Origin: Nitrosopumilus sp. | Lineage (GTDB): Archaea > Thermoproteota > Nitrososphaeria > Nitrososphaerales > Nitrosopumilaceae | Reading direction: 5' to 3' | Assembly (NCBI GenBank): GCA_965205675.1 | Contig: OZ242186.1 | Coordinates: 32,001 to 96,000, forward strand | Length of the DNA: 64,000 bases | In this document: positions 6,774 through 55,700 of the stretch, one piece after another | How the letters are laid out: every line of letters starts with the position of its first letter | Position numbering within the stretch: the first letter of the stretch is position 1 | Notes under the pieces: model-generated | Databases searched by the model: none | Told to the model about the DNA's origin: nothing | The model's input: only the letters and a program-made list of their open reading frames with translations | Program-made: the position numbers and the translations under genes

Positions 6774-7133
6774 TTACACTCTTCTCATAATTTATATGAA
6801 TATATGCTCAACTGATCCCAACACAAACCATTTAGGCAAATTTTGATGATCATTTAGATCTACGAACAATGTCATTTAGAACAATTCTATGCAATTTACA
6901 GAACTAACAAACAAGCAATGAAATATGTTGCAATTACATTTGCCAAAACCAGCTAAAACTGGCCAGACCTAGAGCCGATGACAGGATCACCATCAATCCA
7001 ATAATGTTTGTGTTAATTACAGGTTGCAGGTGGATTGACCTACCTGTGCAGTACAGTTCCAAATCATCCGCACATAGGAGATTTCAGGATTTCCAGCAAA
7101 AGGGAATATGGAAAAAGATTCTCAAATATGTAA

Positions 7134-7292
7134 TGGTTTCTTCCTAATCTGTTTGTTTGTAATCTTTTTTGGAGCCGAGTATTTACGAACCTTGGAACTG
7201 CTAGACTCATTTTTTATGCTATCTGATTTCCTTGCTTTCTTATTCACATATCCATGTGAATCCCTTTTAACTATTGTCGGTATTTTTGCCAT
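7134..7292 (-). pseudogene. 5' fragment of second IS110 transposase (IS110B)
   Basis: Same sequence as 30207-30365, which continues into MFVGIDLHK. Confidence 0.75.
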
Positions 7293-7299
7293 ATTAATT

Positions 7300-7460
7300 A
7301 CAGCTTACGCTAATACACTCATACTTTCAATCACAGATGAAACCAGACACATATCCATTCGGGGTTCTCCCCCAGTACCATCTTCATCCATTTATTAGGT
7401 GAAACCGCGGTTATAGTTTCGAGGTATTATGCATCCTCAATGTGAAAACGCGGCCAAACT
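7300..7460 (-). ncRNA. candidate IS110 bridge RNA, variant 1 (copy 1)
   Basis: Non-coding spacer after the transposase stop; reverse complement aligns by eye with 29034-29180 and 46094-46243 and shows compensated stems. Confidence 0.6.
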
Positions 7461-7482
7461 CCTAACTGTAATGTTTTACAAA

Positions 7483-8570
7483 TTATTGATGACATTGAAT
7501 AAATTCTCTCCTCTCTTTTAGCATCCAATAAATGACACGCAATAACTTTGATGCAGCAGCAACTGCTGCCTTTGAGGTCCCTCTCTTTTTCTTAATGCGA
7601 TTATAAAATTTTGTAATGTCGCTATCTAGTGCGTATCTAACATGTGCATGAATTGCCTCCACTAGCAACCATCTTAGCATGGTGCTTCCTCTCTTTGTAA
7701 TTCTTCCGTGATGTATTGTATCTGCAGAATTTCTCACCGATGGAACAATCCCTGCATATGCACATAACTTGTGAGAATTTGAAAATCTACTAATCTCTGC
7801 AATTTCTGAGAATATGCTCAATGCAGTGTATGGTCCAACTCCAGGTGTGGATGTCAAAATACACACACCAGGATTATCATTTACCATGCGACGTATCATG
7901 GAATCTATCTTTGCAACCTCCTTTTTGTGAAATTTTATGCTTTGTAGGTACGAATCTATTCTATAACTCTCCAATTTTCCAAGTGCACGTATGTGTTCTG
8001 AGGAAAATGGTGTTGCTTTGATATGGATTCCCTCCTGTAGTGTAATACCATGTATGGAATTCTTCATCTTTACAATAATGCGCACAATCTTGTGTCGATG
8101 TCTTACAAGCTGTCTGTATTGCACAATTGTGTGATCTGGCACAAATGATTCTGCAATGTATTCCTCGTAGCAAATTTGCAAGATGGTACGCATCAATTTT
8201 ATCAGTCTTTTTGAGTGATGATGCTATTATCTTTGTGTTGTATGGATTAGATAGTATAACATCAAGATGTAATTTGTCTGTCATGTGTCTATAAAGGCCA
8301 TACCAGACAGATGATGACTCTAAAACATATTTTGCGTTCTTTGGAATTTTGGATGTAATTTTGCTAATAGCAGAAAAATCACTGGAAATCTTTTTGTTAA
8401 ATAATAATTTGCCAATCTCATCTACTGCTGCCACCTGTACAGAGTTCTTGTGAACATCCAATCCTACAAACATCAAATATTTTTTTTTCAGGAAGGGTAG
8501 TGTGTTTGTTTGCATTTCTTACTTTCTTGATACGAATGCAAGTACCATCTAATTTCCTAGCTGATTTTGG
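7483..8570 (-). mobile_element. IS110-family transposase IS110A, split by a +1 frameshift (ORFs 7961-8515 and 7483-8196)
   Basis: RuvC-like DEDD part FVGLDVHK..LESS..KTDKIDA; C-part TPGVGP..AYAGIVPSVRNSA..GRITKRG..AVAAASKL. Confidence 0.92.
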
Positions 8571-9153
8571 CACATATGGTTATAGTTATCTGCACACAAA
8601 GCAAACAAGATTAGTCTGAAAAAAGCATCAGTTGATTCCTCAAGTGCTGCTGCAAAAAAGGGGCAACGATATAAGAAGAGATGGTTTCAAAAAGATTACA
8701 AGCACAAAAATTCATGTTGCAGTAGAACAAAACGGTTTATCAATATCTATTACAATGGATTCTGCAAATTTTCATAATTTCACAAAATATGGAATTGATG
8801 AAAAAGAAAACATTTCTGATTTTGTAAATGATGAGGAAAATTGTTTCAGTTTATGCAGACGAAATTTGTGATGCAAAATCAATTAGAAATCATTTGAGAA
8901 ACAGAAACATCAATCCATGTATTCCATTTAGAAAAAATAATGATGGAGCAACAAAAAATAGATCATACAAAAAAATATAACAAGATTCGTTATGTTGTGG
9001 AGAGATTCTTTGCATAACTCAAGTGTGGATTCTGCAAGAACAGCAATAAGATATGAAAAGAATTGCAAGAATTATTTGGGACCCGTTTACTTGGCACCAA
9101 TTCTGATGTATTGGAGAGTATTGGGATGAGTTGGCTATAAGAATAACCTTCAT

Positions 9154-28277: not shown

Positions 28278-29232
28278 TAACTATAACCATATGTGCCAAA
28301 ATCAGCTAGGAAATTAGATGGTACTTGCATTCGTATCAAGAAAGTAAGAAATGCAAACAAACACACTACCCTTCCTGAAAAAAAATATTTGATGTTTGTA
28401 GGATTGGATGTTCACAAGAACTCTGTACAGGTGGCAGCAGTAGATGAGATTGGCAAATTATTATTTAACAAAAAGATTTCCAGTGATTTTTCTGCTATTA
28501 GCAAAATTACATCCAAAATTCCAAAGAACGCAAAATATGTTTTAGAGTCATCATCTGTCTGGTATGGTTTGTACAGACACATGACAGGCAAATTACATCT
28601 TGATGTTGTATTATCAAATCCATACAACACAAAGATAATTGCCGCATCCCTCAAAAAGACCGATAACATTGATGTGTATCAACTTGCAAATCTGTTACGA
28701 GGAAGGTATTGCAGAATTATTTGTGTCAGATCATACTATTGTGTAATACAGACAGCTTGTAAGACATCGACACAAGATTATACGCGTTATTGTAAAGATG
28801 AAGAATTCCATACATGGCATTACACTACAGAAGGGAATCCATATTAAAGCGACATCCTTCTCCTCAACACATACGAGCCACTTGGAAATCTGAAAAGTTA
28901 CAGAATAGACTCGCATCTGCAAAGCATGGGATTTCACAAAAAAGAGGTTGCAAAAATAGATTCCATGATACGTCGTATGGTGATTGGAAATCATGATGTG
29001 CATATTTTGACATCGATACCTAGCGTTGGACTGCAAGTCGCGTTAGAATTTATGAGGGACAAGGCCTCGTCTGATAACTGCGAACAATCCTAATGAAAGG
29101 ATAAAGATAGCATTGAGAGAATAGTCTCGTATGGATACATGCCCGCATCTTTTGATTGTAATTCTTCTTTAACGAAAGCCATGCCCTAATGTTTAGAAAG
29201 AGAGGAAATGTATAAAACAATTCACATGGATA
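28278..29232 (+). mobile_element. IS110 element (IS110A-like), frameshifted and internally deleted, both ends retained
   Basis: Left end TAACTATAACCATATGTGCC shared with the other copies; ORF 28293-28847 FVGLDVHK; deletion after IPSVG; right end TTCACATGGATA. Confidence 0.88.
29034..29232 (+). ncRNA. candidate IS110 bridge RNA, variant 2, plus right end
   Basis: Co-linear with 46094-46296 as conserved blocks and variable loops; internal ATGGATA (29131-29137) equals terminal ATGGATA (29226-29232). Confidence 0.6.
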
Positions 29233-29426
29233 ATCATATGCTTCGGCTTTCGTTAGTAACTAGGCAATTCCAGCAGACAATTTCAATAATCTTTGAGTTT
29301 ATGGATTTAGTAATTTATAGTTCCATTAGCTAATAGTATAAATATTAAAAATTATACAAAAATTATTGTTTTTATGCAAATTTTCATACTAAATGTTAAA
29401 TACTTAAAGTTATTATAGTAATTAAT

Positions 29427-29984: not shown

Positions 29985-30068
29985 TAATATTTGTTTTAAA
30001 TTCCATTATAAAAATAAATTCTATCAATACGCTCAAGTCTGTAATTTATACATAATTTAAAAATGGAT

Positions 30069-30365
30069 TTAATTTGTAAAATGCTTTTTGATGGATTCAT
30101 GAGTGTTATCCACTTTGTCATTTTGTAATACTTTGCCTGCATCATCCATTATTGCTACTTGAAGAAACTTCTTGTGCAGGTCAATGCCCACAAACATGCC
30201 TTTCTTTGGTTTCTTCCTAATCTGTTTGTTTGTAATCTTTTTTGGAGCCGAGTATTTACGAACCTTGGAACTGCTAGACTCATTTTTTATGCTATCTGAT
30301 TTCCTTGCTTTCTTATTCACATATCCATGTGAATCCCTTTTAACTATTGTCGGTATTTTTGCCAT
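30069..30365 (-). pseudogene. IS110B transposase, truncated after the first RuvC strand
   Basis: Basic N-terminal extension then MFVGIDLHKKFLQVAIMD. Confidence 0.85.
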
Positions 30366-30372
30366 ATTAATT

Positions 30373-30533
30373 ACAGCTTACGCTAATACACTCATACTTT
30401 CAATCACAGATGAAACCAGACACATATCCATTCGGGGTTCTCCCCCAGTACCATCTTCATCCATTTATTAGGTGAAACCGCGGTTATAGTTTCGAGGTAT
30501 TATGCATCCTCAATGTGAAAACGCGGCCAAACT
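30373..30533 (-). ncRNA. candidate IS110 bridge RNA, variant 1 (copy 2)
   Basis: Same sequence as 7300-7460. Confidence 0.6.
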
Positions 30534-30555
30534 CCTAACTGTAATGTTTTACAAA

Positions 30556-31672
30556 TTATTGATGACATTGAACAAATTCTCTCCTCTCTTTTAGCATCCA
30601 ATATATGACACGCAATAACTTTGATGCAGCAGCAACTGCTGCCTTTGAGGTCCCTCTCTTTTTCTTAATGCGATTATAAAATTTTGTAATGTTGCTATCT
30701 GGTGCGTATCTAACATGTGCATGAATTGCCTCCACTAGCAACCATCTTAGCATGGTGCTTCCTCTCTTTGTAATTCTTCCGTGATGTATTGTATCTGCAG
30801 AATTTCTCACCGATGGAACAATCCCTGCATATGCACATAACTTGTGAGAATTTGAAAATCTACTAATCTCTGCAATTTCTGAGAATATGCTCAATGCAGT
30901 GTATGGTCCAACTCCAGGTGTGGATATCAAAATACACACACCAGGATTATCATTTACCATGCGACGTATCATGGAATCTATCTTTGCAACCTCCTTTTTG
31001 TGAAATTTTATGCTTTGTAGGTACGAATCTATTCTATAACTCTCCAATTTTCCAAGTGCACGTATGTGTTCTGAGGAAAATGGTGTTGCTTTGATATGGA
31101 TTCCCTCCTGTAGTGTAATACCATGTATGGAATTCTTCATCTTTACAATAATGCGTATAATCTTGTGTCGATGTCTTACAAGCTGTCTGTATTGCACAAT
31201 TGTGTGATCTGGCACAAATGATTCTGCAATGTATCCCTCCTCGTAGCAAATTTGCAAGATGGTACGCATCAATTTTATCAGTCTTTTTGAGTGATGATGC
31301 TATTATCTTTGTGTTGTATGGATTAGATAGTATAACATCAAGATGTAATTTGTCTGTCATGTGTCTATAAAGGCCATACCAGACAGATGATGACTCTAAA
31401 ACATATTTTGCGTTCTTTGGAATTTTGGATGTAATTTTGCTAATAGCAGAAAAATCACTGGAAATCTTTTTGTTAAATAATAATTTGCCAATCTCATCTA
31501 CTGCTGCCACCTGTACAGAGTTCTTGTGAACATCCAATCCTACAAACATCAAATATTTTTTTTTCAGGAAGGGTAGTGTGTTTGTTTGCATTTCTTACTT
31601 TCTTGATACGAATGCAAGTACCATCTAATTTCCTAGCTGATTTTGGCACATATGGTTATGGTTATAGTTATC
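30556..31672 (-). mobile_element. IS110A transposase (ORFs 31034-31591 and 30556-31272, +1 frameshift) and left end
   Basis: Near-identical to 7483-8590. Confidence 0.92.
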
Positions 31673-32944: not shown

Positions 32945-33577
32945 CTAATCAGATTTCCATTGCAATAAAGAATATATCATTTCAATAAAATCTGAAAACC
33001 CCGAGTTCTCAGTCCTACTTGATACTGAATCTGTTTTAATGACTTGGCATATGCCATCTATCAGTTTAGTACCATGCCCACACAAGGGTTGAAGTTCTGA
33101 ATCTACAGTAACAGGCTGTGTTTTAATGACTTGGCATATACCATCTATCAGTTTAGTACCATGCCCACACAAGGGTTGAAGTTCTGAATCTACAGTAACA
33201 GGCTGTGTTTTAATGACTTGGCATATACCATCTATCAGTTTAGTACCATGCCCACACAAGGGTTCATCAGAAACAGTTGTAGATGTTACAGCAGAAGACA
33301 GAGTTGTCGCATTAGCAGATGGTTGTTTTGCTATATCATGGCACAACACATTACCGCAAACTTTGGAACTGTTGATTTTGCCAGAGCCTCCATTAGATTT
33401 TCTCTCAGATGGTATATCTTCTGATGTTTGCTTGTAGGTTGCAGTATTTGTTTGGTCGTTTTGTTGAGAGTCAGGATGATTGGCAGTGTTATCTTGTGTC
33501 TGAGAATATGAAATATCTACAAATGGAATTGCAAGTACTAAAAACAACACAAAAACTAAATTATAACTGTAAATCAT
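32945..33577 (-). CDS. secreted protein with Cys-bridged 29-aa repeats
   Basis: Signal peptide; VCGNVLC; three copies of PLCGHGTKLIDGICQVIKT. Confidence 0.8.
   Translation of the reverse strand: MIYSYNLVFVLFLVLAIPFVDISYSQTQDNTANHPDSQQNDQTNTATYKQTSEDIPSERKSNGGSGKINSSKVCGNVLCHDIAKQPSANATTLSSAVTSTTVSDEPLCGHGTKLIDGICQVIKTQPVTVDSELQPLCGHGTKLIDGICQVIKTQPVTVDSELQPLCGHGTKLIDGICQVIKTDSVSSRTENSGFSDFIEMIYSLLQWKSD
33032..33264. repeat. 87-bp coding tandem repeat (~2.7 units)
   Basis: Units start at 33032, 33119 and 33206 and are nearly identical. Confidence 0.92.
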
Positions 33578-40592: not shown

Positions 40593-40732
40593 AGACCTCT
40601 TGCGTAATTATAGAGATTTTTTCTCAAATTTTGTATTTTAACAGAATTCATACCTGAAAATTCAAATTTTTCAACCAATTTGAAAAATCCTCCAGCAAAA
40701 TTCACGCCTAGAAATAATTACGCAAGACGTCT
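40593..40732. mobile_element. MITE family A (140 bp, ISL2-type ends)
   Basis: TIRs AGACCTCTTGCGTAATTAT / ATAATTACGCAAGACGTCT, TSD ATA; reverse-complement copy at 55250-55389. Confidence 0.92.
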
Positions 40733-40884
40733 ATAGTATCACGCCTTGGTGTGTCATGGTATCAAATGAAGTACAATGCATATTTGATGGAGTGACATAC
40801 TTCCATCAAGCTTTTTCTATCTGAATAGATTGATTGAATAATTGATAGTTTTTGATCTAAATTGAGTTACTTTCCCATCTACTG

Positions 40885-45664: not shown

Positions 45665-46106
45665 AAGAGACGGATATTTACGGTAGATAATTCTACTCGA
45701 GGATGATGCAATACTAATAAACTCATTCCTGAAATTGGTAATTATTCTGTACTAGTGATATCGTTAGAAATTGCAGATATTGATAGATTCAACAACTCTT
45801 ACAAGTTATGTGCATATGCAGGAGTTGTCCCATCAATTACCAATTCTGCAGATACAATAGTCAGGGTACCATCACAAAACAAGAACGCATGACATTGAGA
45901 TGAGTTCTGACATATGCATATACACTCAAGCAGTACATACAAAGAATAGTGATATTACTAAATTTTACAATCGTATCAAAAAGAAGAGAAGATCATCCAA
46001 AGATGCAGTTGCTGCTGCATCAAAGATTCAACGAGTAGTTTATTGGATGTTGAAAGACAGGAGAGAGTTTATGGAATATTACAGTCAGGATTCCAAGTCG
46101 CGTTAA
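45665..46106 (+). pseudogene. IS110 transposase C-terminal remnant
   Basis: IPEIGNYS..EIADIDRF..KLCAYAGVVPS..NSA; FYNRIKKKR..AVAAASK. Confidence 0.85.
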
Positions 46107-46296
46107 AGTTGTTGAGGGACAAGGCCTTGTCTTCTAACTCTAAATAATCTTAATGAAGAGATGAGGAAGGTATTGAGAATACAGTCTTGGCATGGATACA
46201 TGTTTGCATATCTCTTGATTGAAATCATTCCCTAGCGAAAGCCATCTCTTGATGTTTGAAAAGAGAGGAAATGTATAAAAATAATTCACATGGATA
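46094..46296 (+). ncRNA. candidate IS110 bridge RNA, variant 3, plus right end
   Basis: Homologous to 29034-29232; internal CATGGATA (46191-46198) equals terminal CATGGATA (46289-46296). Confidence 0.6.
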
Positions 46297-54554: not shown

Positions 54555-55700
54555 AATATGAGATTTTCTTACTATTATTATCAATTTTTTTAATTTGTCC
54601 CAACCTCTGTATGTACCGAAGAATATATCATTGATATTCCACTTTGTGCATATAATCCTGAACTAAATACTTTAGGCAGAAGTGTGGGTATGTTCCACCT
54701 CAACTGTACGTAATTATTGGTACTACAATTACCTAGTATACTGATGACAATGAAGATCATACCGTAACAAGTGGAGAAAGTTAAGGAAGATTTGATCGTA
54801 CAAGCGACAATTTTGGAAAATCTAATGATATTTTTGATAATTGCAGATTTATGTCAGGCACATCATGATCATACAAATTTGAATAATCTGGAACGTTTTA
54901 TTATTATTGTACAATTTATTATTATTGTACAATTTATCTTTGGATGGAAAGAGTTGTTATATTTGAAAAACAAATCCCTGATTATCTACACGATGCAACT
55001 GGTACAAAATTAAAATTTTCTTTGTTGCAATATACTCCTGATAAAAATATAAAAGTAAATCTAATTTGGGATCCACCTATGATTAAAACCCATGAAAAAA
55101 TTCAATTTATTTATCATTTTTGTGATCTAAAAATAAATTCTAATCTTACAGAAATGAAATACAATTTTATAATATTTCAAAATGAACAAAAACTCTTTAG
55201 AGATGAAAATTAAATCCGATTGGTATAGATTATAGAAATTTTATTTAGTAGACGTCTTGCGTAATTATTTCTAGGCGTGAATTTTGCTGGAGGATTTTTC
55301 AAATTGGTTGAAAAATTTGAATTTTCAGGTATGAATTCTGTTAAAATACAAAATTTGAGAAAAAATCTCTATAATTACGCAAGAGGTCTAGTGAATCAGA
55401 TTCTATCATAATTAGAACAGAAGGCATTCATTCACTTTCAGTTTTAGCTGAAGACAGTATTACTGTATTTGGAGATATTCAAAGCAGAGAACAACATTCT
55501 GTCGATTTTACTACAGCCGGTTTATAATAACACTAAAAAATTATCTCATGAAAATTATCATACAAAACCAGCTCAATGACTAACTATTTACTATGAATTC
55601 ATGCTATTCATCATTTTTGCTCCTGGCATCATACTTGTTGTTGCCTTACTTTGATTAAAGAGACAACCAAAGATCAAACACCTAGTACTGTTAAAATATA
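54555..55700 (+). pseudogene. plastocyanin/cupredoxin-domain protein pseudogene interrupted by MITE A
   Basis: EEYIIDIP..AYNPELNT, HTVTSG, YYCTI..WM, IPDY.HDATG, WDPP in broken frames. Confidence 0.7.
55250..55389. mobile_element. MITE family A copy
   Basis: Reverse complement of 40593-40732; TSD AGT. Confidence 0.92.

Follow-up and report, generated by a model that had tools for sequence, protein, structure and literature searches.

IS4321 and IS5075, two members of the IS110 family of insertion sequences (IS), are reportedly aimed at the end of Tn21-family transposons, and an IS110-family element directed to the end of another mobile element is thus already known. Here we describe two IS110-family elements, designated A and B, from a 64,000-nucleotide stretch of the genome of Nitrosopumilus sp. 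(contig OZ242186.1, positions 32,001 to 96,000 of the forward strand; hereafter the window), in which a first-pass annotation had noticed two near-identical copies of a tandem arrangement. Both elements encode, 3' of their own gene, a predicted bridge (seek) RNA of ~150 nt with two loops, and comparison with the other copies of the family indicates that A is guided to a fixed position at the left tip of B and of its siblings. In being site-specific members of the IS110 family with the end of another element as a target, IS4321/IS5075 and A are alike, although this is a likeness of behaviour and not of group membership. The target of IS4321/IS5075, however, is an unrelated Tn3-family transposon, whereas that of A is the tip of a sibling IS110-family element, and the product in the present case is a head-to-tail pair of two RNA-guided elements, which can recombine with each other and perhaps move together.

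Three other described systems are relevant for comparison. As in the IS1111 group (ISEc11, ISKpn4, ISPa11), to the extent that it is covered by excerpts of PMC11187229 and PMC11208160, A and B encode a DEDD recombinase of ~330 aa with the RNA following the gene, possess subterminal inverted repeats, carry the top-strand match on the 5' side of the RNA loops and have relatives with different targets. The likeness to the IS1111 group is one of features, and A and B differ from this group in that the host is archaeal, the RNA has no Rfam match and the target of A is the tip of a sibling element instead of a host sequence. In the case of the IS621 bridge RNA, as outlined in the excerpts available, one loop likewise reads the target and the other the joined ends, both strands around a short core being recognised; the IS621 RNA, however, lies upstream of the gene, the order of its guides is reversed and the core is CT, whereas here the core lies within ATAA/ATA. 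ISPpu9 of Pseudomonas putida consists of two abutting IS110-family modules with inner and outer end boxes, which occur together or apart; according to the part of PMC12288879 seen, the movement was proposed to involve A-B, A-B' or A'-B' segments (in the lettering of that element), and circles were shown by experiment. ISPpu9 therefore provides an experimental precedent for the modular movement of abutting IS110-family segments, although its second module is a small-RNA gene, while here it is a complete second IS and the movement of the pair is deduced from sequence alone. According to an excerpt of a 2026 survey, the archaeal genome with the highest IS content is a Nitrosopumilus metagenome-assembled genome (MAG) (PMC13343696). 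The literature search returned no paper on an IS110-family element aimed at the end of a sibling or on these Nitrosopumilus elements, though the target tables of PMC11208160 and PMC11187229 may hold such cases. New with respect to the searched literature are the target, that is, the tip of sibling RNA-guided elements, and the tandems, the probable co-mobilised pair and the recombinants with swapped RNA modules in an IS-rich Nitrosopumilus.

The genome to which the window belongs (labelled G000 below) is represented by one contig of 2.01 Mb with a G+C content of 33.7%, which was searched by BLAST. The two window copies, 7134-8590 (copy 1) and 30207-31672 (copy 2), are both located on the minus strand and, in agreement with the first-pass annotation, are near-identical (99.2% across ~1459 nt). 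Copy 2 exceeds copy 1 in length, as its left end carries a 6-nt duplication (ATAACC) and one site differs by 3 nt. The flanks of the two copies are unrelated on either side, the homology ending at the element ends. Each copy contains a transposase gene of the IS110 family, which a frameshift divides into two ORFs (PF01548 in the first, PF02371 in the second), and a 234-nt structured non-coding stretch 3' of this gene, so that the transposase A and the RNA-like spacer recognised earlier are both there. The usual right end, which had been reported as absent, is in fact present: TTCACATGGATA was found at 7260-7249 and 30333-30322 and represents the right end of A. The start of a second transposase had been placed in both copies, about 10 nt past the RNA scaffold. 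This held for copy 2 alone, where B begins with MFVGIDLHK (ATG 30197) outside of the shared stretch, whereas copy 1 retains only non-coding sequence of B; moreover, the ATG of B is situated ~125 nt past the end of A.

The final 118 nt of the stretch shared by the window copies proved to be the left end of B, a separate element of 1335 bp. The BLAST search for copies with full-length B, which had been proposed as a check, yielded ten of them in the genome, five being solo and five standing directly behind A. In the case of solo B, the site reads CCAATAA-CTATATGTGAAT...TTCACATGGATAA-TTACA, the right end also being written CACATGGATAA. Mapping of empty sites was equally informative, as the paralogous empty sites read CCAATAATTACA and show simple insertions. 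Comparison of the empty site with the occupied one (CCAATAA-[B]-ATAA-TTACA) demonstrates that B is bounded by CT...GG, with 4 nt (ATAA) assignable to neither side. The order in the tandems is throughout flank-ATAA-CTATA-[A: ACCATATGTGCC...CACATGG-ATA]-TGTGAAT...B, to be compared with flank-ATAA-CTATATGTGAAT in solo B. A (~1335 bp, with the right-end sequence ...CACATGGATA) is thus positioned 5 nt inside the left end of B, with 3 ambiguous nt (ATA), and the outer left end of the tandem is CTATAACC. Since the outermost CTATA of B is located on the far side of A, it was A that went into B and not B that arrived at the right end of A. A third member of the family, C, which encodes a recombinase of 333 aa with 61% identity, is present in four copies in the genome.

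These boundaries bear directly on two other arrangements considered in the first-pass annotation. It is extremely improbable that B inserted at the right end of A, or that the RNA belongs to B as an upstream RNA of the IS110-subgroup type. The bridge RNA of the IS110 subgroup does lie upstream of the gene (PMC11208160, in excerpt), as the RNA does here in relation to B, but the first 5 nt of B or C are found on the far side of A, apart from the rest of the element, and the right end of A does not correspond to the guides of B (AATAA / TTACAA). In addition, all five solo copies of B have a 120-nt left end upstream of the gene which lacks such an RNA, and the guides are arranged in the IS1111 order. 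B on its own with this RNA upstream, which had been named among the observations that would refute the first-pass proposal, was never seen, and the adjacency of A and B is not limited to the window copies. The notion of a single composite element, in which two recombinases share one RNA, takes up the facts that A and B are adjacent eight times in this genome and also in two related Nitrosopumilus genomes, and that the RNA sits between the two genes; it nevertheless has to be regarded as very unlikely. B has its own homologous RNA 3' of its own gene, with guides matching the flanks of B, and five solo B copies as well as several solo A-type hybrids are present. Besides, A also precedes C, and possesses its own right end and a putative donor loop which fits its own left end. 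What stands is the recognition that two distinct elements of the IS110 family form a tandem and are separated by a structured RNA.

A and B are two separate IS110-family elements of the IS1111 type, and they match the features of both the family and the subgroup that were tested. The NF033542 model ('IS110 family RNA-guided transposase') matches B with 229 bits and A with 247 bits (cut-off 140), and PF01548 together with PF02371 was also detected in the intact A of a relative, in agreement with the DEDD and Transposase_20 domains of the family. The subterminal inverted repeats, a feature of the IS1111 subgroup (7-17 bp with short extensions), are ATGTGAAT / ATTCACAT, of 8 bp in B, in which the left CT-ATATGTGAAT is matched by ATTCACATGGATA on the right; a weaker form (ATGTG) occurs in A. 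Insertion is site-specific without a long target duplication, and the target and both junctions have a short core in common, with 4 ambiguous nt for B and 3 nt (ATA) for A in B. The longer non-coding region is downstream of the gene in both elements (~104 nt before and 234 nt after it in A, ~124 and ~210 nt in B). The recombinases of the family members are 330-333 aa in length (A 330, B 331, C 333) and hence fit the 330-350 aa range of IS1111-type recombinases given in the available part of PMC11187229.

Relatives were collected by a protein-based scan using one genome per species, which led to the identification of 75 loci, mostly in MAG records titled Nitrosopumilus, Cenarchaeum or Nitrosopumilaceae; a DNA-level search of same-genus and same-order representatives gave weak matches (67-85% identity) in 3 of 40 other genomes alone. 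B carries, 3' of its own gene, a non-coding region homologous to the RNA of A. The consensus fold of the 3' regions of 20 diverse relatives comprises 28 pairs, with 99.3% of cells paired. Both sides have changed in 11 of these pairs, compared with 0-2 such pairs in six slid controls, and none of 500 shuffles reached the observed values on four of five measures. The consensus consists of a basal stem, a stem-loop 1 with a large internal loop of ~10 nt per side, and a stem-loop 2 with an asymmetric internal loop. In the RNA of A, loop 1 is formed by UUUUCACAU on the 5' side and AAACUAUAAC on the 3' side, and loop 2 by AUGGUAC and GAAUGGAUAUGUG. No Rfam match was found in the entire window at the gathering score, nor in 7100-7520 at E values up to 1. 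A member with 55% identity and the same two-loop RNA (L057) was found on a 1281-nt contig of a MAG titled Campylobacterales, which may be a binning error, since all other relatives belong to Nitrosopumilaceae.

To compare the guide loops with insertion sites, the sides of loop 1 and the element flanks were extracted for 48 distinct sites, representing 21 guide classes. The 5' guide, taken as its reverse complement, scores on average 7.46 of 9 against the cognate right flank and 4.88 against non-cognate flanks; in label permutations using a single site for each class, 0 of 20000 reached the observed sum. The 3' guide corresponds to the left flank together with the two initial bases of the element, again with 0 of 20000 permutations reaching the observed sum. 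The match to the top strand is therefore on the 5' side and that to the bottom strand on the 3' side. According to excerpts of the respective papers, IS1111-type seekRNAs have the same order, with the top-strand match 5' (PMC11187229), and IS621 has the opposite one, its 5' side pairing with the bottom strand (PMC11208160). Loop 1 of B (UUGUAAUUAU / UCUAAUAACU) specifies ..AATAA/TTACAA (the slash denotes the junction), which is the chromosomal site of B. Loop 1 of A specifies AACTATA/TGTGAA(A)A, which is the junction at the left tip of B; the tip AACTATA/TGTGAATA is also present in C. When A-type elements are compared with the outer host flank, the 3' guide scores only 1-4 of 8, which fits a left target represented by the sibling tip, in a register chosen after scoring. 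The 3' side of loop 2, AUGGAUA, is in all types the same as the element's right end. The 5' side is AUAG in 9 of 9 distinct types with CTAT left ends and AUGG in 8 of 9 with CCAT, so 17 of the 18 types conform, the sole exception being a hybrid with the outer end CTAT. This distribution fits a role of loop 2 as a donor loop reading the element ends.

The distribution of A in the genome is in agreement with its guides. All nine right ends of A abut TGTGAATAA, which belongs to B in eight cases and to C in one (953-954 kb), and the adjacency of A and B is far above chance. The 13-nt motif AAC[TC]ATATGTGAA has ten unoccupied occurrences in the 2.01 Mb, every one of them being the left end of B (6) or C (4). 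In the tandem of A and C, the 5 nt preceding A are the CCATA of C and not the CTATA of B; this junction hence represents an independent insertion event and identifies these 5 nt as part of the target element. Among relatives, one harbours the A-B tandem (96% identity) at two loci (L053 and L054) and A adjoining the left end of B at a third (L051), and in another (L073) a different family member is preceded by an A-like element with the guide UAUUCACAU, which complements ATGTGAATA at 9 of 9 positions. The position in the sibling end is thus fixed in all nine cases in G000 and in 4 of 4 A-type elements of the relatives, and the orientation of A is always the same. Given the match of the guide, the uniform right ends and the fact that all unoccupied motif copies are tips of B or C, A homes onto sibling ends; its guided insertion into the sibling tip is well supported by comparison. 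The extra ACCATA to the left of window copy 2, which also occurs at 566 kb and 1408 kb, may be the remnant of an insertion of A into the similar tip of a second A copy (AACC-ATA-TGTGCC). The copy of C behind A (953.0-956.3k, L088) is cut after ~30 codons by a 1.15-kb element present in ~17 copies.

The arrangement as a whole is probably explained by homing to a sibling tip followed by movement of the pair and by the formation of hybrids. As a first step A, guided by loop 1, would enter a resident sibling 5 nt from the outer edge of its left end, in the same orientation, giving rise to a tandem. The tandem would keep the CTATA of B at its left and the right end and RNA of B at its right. Because the putative donor loop of B (AUAG pairing with CTAT) could still read both ends of the tandem, the pair may be movable as one unit, and the 2.7-kb pair would in this way have moved into B-type targets. 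Eventually, the two genes of a tandem would recombine in their similar 3' parts and thereby produce hybrids, in which the recombinase of A is joined to a B-like RNA module and which continue to transpose under new guides.

The second of these steps has moderate support. The B copies of the five full tandems share six variants (columns 108, 111, 114, 225, 234 and 236) which are absent from the five solo B. In the relative with two A-B tandems, the homology between L053 and L054 coincides precisely with the unit (2671 bp, 98.6%), the flanks are unrelated and both B copies carry the same broken frame. These findings speak for the part of the first-pass proposal according to which the pair moved as a unit, with chances that are roughly even or somewhat better, whereas the two recombinases with one RNA, which had been offered as one explanation of that movement, do not apply. 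The tandems could also have arisen solely by repeated independent insertions of A into resident solo B, the pair never moving as such. The guide of A fits every left tip of B or C, the insertion of A into C was a separate event, the left-end variant of B in the window copies differs from that of the five full tandems, and the targets of the tandems are all of the B type, which would follow from an earlier arrival of B. Such an origin of all tandems seems unlikely nonetheless: a random 5:5 split would separate the tandem B copies from the solo ones, as the six variants do, about once in 126 cases, the two B copies of the relative are both in tandems with the same broken frame (a 199-aa ORF) and with homology ending at the unit ends, and the composite left end, to judge from the hybrids, can support transposition.

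The hybrids consist of the recombinase of A up to its last codons, followed by a B-like C-terminus (…EFVQNYS), the RNA module and the right end, and appear to be products of recombination. They have the composite left end CTATAACC and various guide sets. Since they are situated at several sites whose flanks match their own guides (L042, L045, L050, L070 and L074, in a relative), this left end must be regarded as transposition-competent. Further recombinant elements were found at L043, at 755.7-754.4k of G000 and in the decayed window copy at 28278-29238.

None of the A copies in G000 has an open frame, all being out of frame at a GGAGG(G) site. Seven of them read CGAGGAGGGATAC there, as compared with CGAGGAGGATAC in B and in all A-type genes of relatives; in window copy 1, GGAATAC replaces the in-frame GGAGGATAC near 8160, one further copy has another 3-nt difference and one is interrupted at this site. 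At 31235, however, a form shorter by one letter (G), which restores the 330-aa frame, is present in contigs of four of four public sequencing runs, accounting for all depth in three of them and for 9125 of 13539 in the fourth. This implies either an intact A in the sampled populations (strain polymorphism) or a systematic assembly error. As to full-length B, eight of the ten copies (e.g. those at 202.7k, 815.2k and 1774.4k and all five tandems) share a complex 2-nt lesion in codons 14-16 that removes the first catalytic region. The lesion does not occur in the truncated B of the window. Two solo copies of B, at 617k and 1109k, are intact (331 aa), as are three copies of C.

Several observations weigh against the explanation of homing, unit movement and hybrids given above. 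All six tandem-specific variants are confined to the first 236 nt of B, beside A, the remainder of B forms a mosaic with that of the solo copies, and the few sites at which the A copies differ are likewise mosaic; the genealogy is thus blurred by recombination. The left end of B in the window copies represents another variant with a private 3-nt insertion. Three tandems in which A is followed by B (571887 in G000, L053 and L054) have CCATA and not CTATA before A, so that an extra recombination step or a variant of B not seen here is needed. No circle junction, excision product or joint across A or B was seen in the assembled contigs of the four public runs. The single-sequence fold of the 3' region of A is no more stable than shuffles (z = -0.88), and the case for the RNA structure hence rests on the comparison between relatives. 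The relatives are not independent, the covariation of the donor loop may go back to as few as one or two changes in evolution, and the stretches that pair are short. The 5' guide of A, UUCACAU, is identical in sense to the right end of A itself (TTCACAT), because the element ends are inverted repeats; owing to this ambiguity, it is ascribed to the target by analogy with the 20 other guide classes. In G000 the guide of A has one mismatch to the tip of B (ATGTGAAAA versus ATGTGAATA). Finally, in view of the frameshifts in A and the lesions in B, present-day movement of the window copies would need a recombinase acting in trans.

It was also considered whether segmental duplication, homologous recombination by itself or an error of assembly could account for the repeat. 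The genome is very repeat-rich and flanks are shuffled among the copies: the tandem at 996k, for instance, combines the left flank of 929k with the right flank of the solo copy at 1109k, and three tandems have a left flank in common. An origin of this kind is hardly credible, however, as the homology of the window copies stops at the element ends with different flanks beyond and does not reach into host DNA, at least six different left flanks exist, the empty paralogous sites indicate simple insertions, and other assemblies show this architecture as well. The junction of truncated B with its flank at 30073 is also bridged by contigs of two public runs (X1 and X2); a contig of a further run (X4) continues into full B there. 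The left junction of copy 2 at 31672 is not spanned by any contig of the four runs. As regards the chromosomal targets of B, they lie in other repeats: a 172-nt left flank (e.g. that to the left of 1109.4k) recurs ~30 times with 90-100% identity and another target is inside a family of >15 copies, the genome being extremely repeat-rich.

The coordinates of the features are listed in Table 1. In copy 1, A comprises the left end, the frameshifted transposase gene and the 3' RNA module, and is followed by ~115 nt of the non-coding left end of B (7248-7134) and then by an IS4/IS5-type gene (PF13340), which is interrupted by the entire insert. B is missing from about its nt 119 precisely to its right boundary, GAAGAAACCA standing directly against the TTACATATTTGAG of the target (7134/7133). 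Other B remnants break at nt 110, 179, 202, 256 and 815 without comparable precision, and the exact outer breakpoint suggests that the deletion in copy 1 was made by a recombinase, although no pseudo-site was seen. The paralogs of this site contain 2 nt (TA or CA) missing from the occupied copy and, because of this difference, do not constitute a clean before/after pair.

Table 1. Positions of the IS110-family elements and adjoining features in the window.
Feature	Position	Strand	Basis
Element A, copy 1 (ACCATATGTGCC...GGGATTCACATGGATA)	7249..8580	-	Solo B/C left ends compared with A-B/A-C junctions; motif coordinates; IS110 domains
Transposase A gene, copy 1	7483..8473	-	ATG 8473, stop 7483-7485; 330-aa intact form in relatives
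Predicted bridge/seek RNA core of A, copy 1	7319..7468	-	Single-sequence fold; consensus fold of 20 relatives; guide-flank covariation
Left end of B (TGTGAATAAG...GAAGAAACCA), non-coding portion alone	7134..7248	-	96.6% identity to five solo B left ends
GATAA (left half of host target) + CTATA (outermost 5 nt of B, severed by A)	8581..8590	-	Solo B compared with tandem
Half of interrupted IS4/IS5-type transposase gene (DUF4096)	7004..7133	+	PF13340; uninterrupted genomic paralogs; other half from 8591
Element A, copy 2 (1335 bp)	30322..31656	-	BLAST/motif coordinates
Transposase A gene, copy 2	30556..31549	-	Frame broken by extra G in run 31235-31237
Predicted bridge/seek RNA core of A, copy 2 (same sequence as in copy 1)	30392..30541	-	
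Element B, truncated	30073..30321	-	Left end 30321-30198, ATG 30197, 42 codons; B homology stops at 30073
GATAA (host) + CTATA (outer 5 nt of B) + extra ACCATA	31657..31672	-	
Third, decayed relative	28278..29238	+	A-type left end and 5' half of gene (91%) fused to B-like RNA module and right end (89%)
Fourth relative	45704..46296	+	3' half of B-like element (79%) with RNA module and right end

Two further repeats were observed elsewhere in the window. Three tandem units of 87 nt (99% and 72% identity to the reference unit) at 33032-33292 are located in a 210-aa ORF on the minus strand (32945-33577) and encode a repeated 'PLCGHGTKLIDGICQVIKTQPVTVDSELQ' module behind a hydrophobic N-terminus. 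A perfect inverted repeat of 141 nt has its arms, 40593-40733 and 55249-55389, 14.5 kb apart.

Programmable tools for recombination are being built from bridge and seek RNAs, and the way in which the specificity of these RNAs changes in nature is poorly documented. The family described here offers ~20 naturally reprogrammed guide sets in archaea, one of them aimed at the tip of its own siblings, with three kinds of products: tandems, a probable co-mobilised pair, and recombinants in which the recombinase of one lineage is paired with the RNA module of another. It also provides concrete and testable pairs of guide and target for an archaeal system of the IS1111 type. Since landing in another IS is harmless to the host, homing of this sort is a simple explanation for the stacking of IS within IS in very IS-rich genomes of the symbiont type. 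More tentatively, homing onto a sibling tip may act as a natural 'docking', by which pairs are mobilised by the RNA of the downstream partner and entire guide-RNA modules are exchanged between recombinase lineages via recombination of the two recombinase genes. If this is true, docking would let IS110-family elements gain new target specificities and would allow a defective element to hitch-hike.

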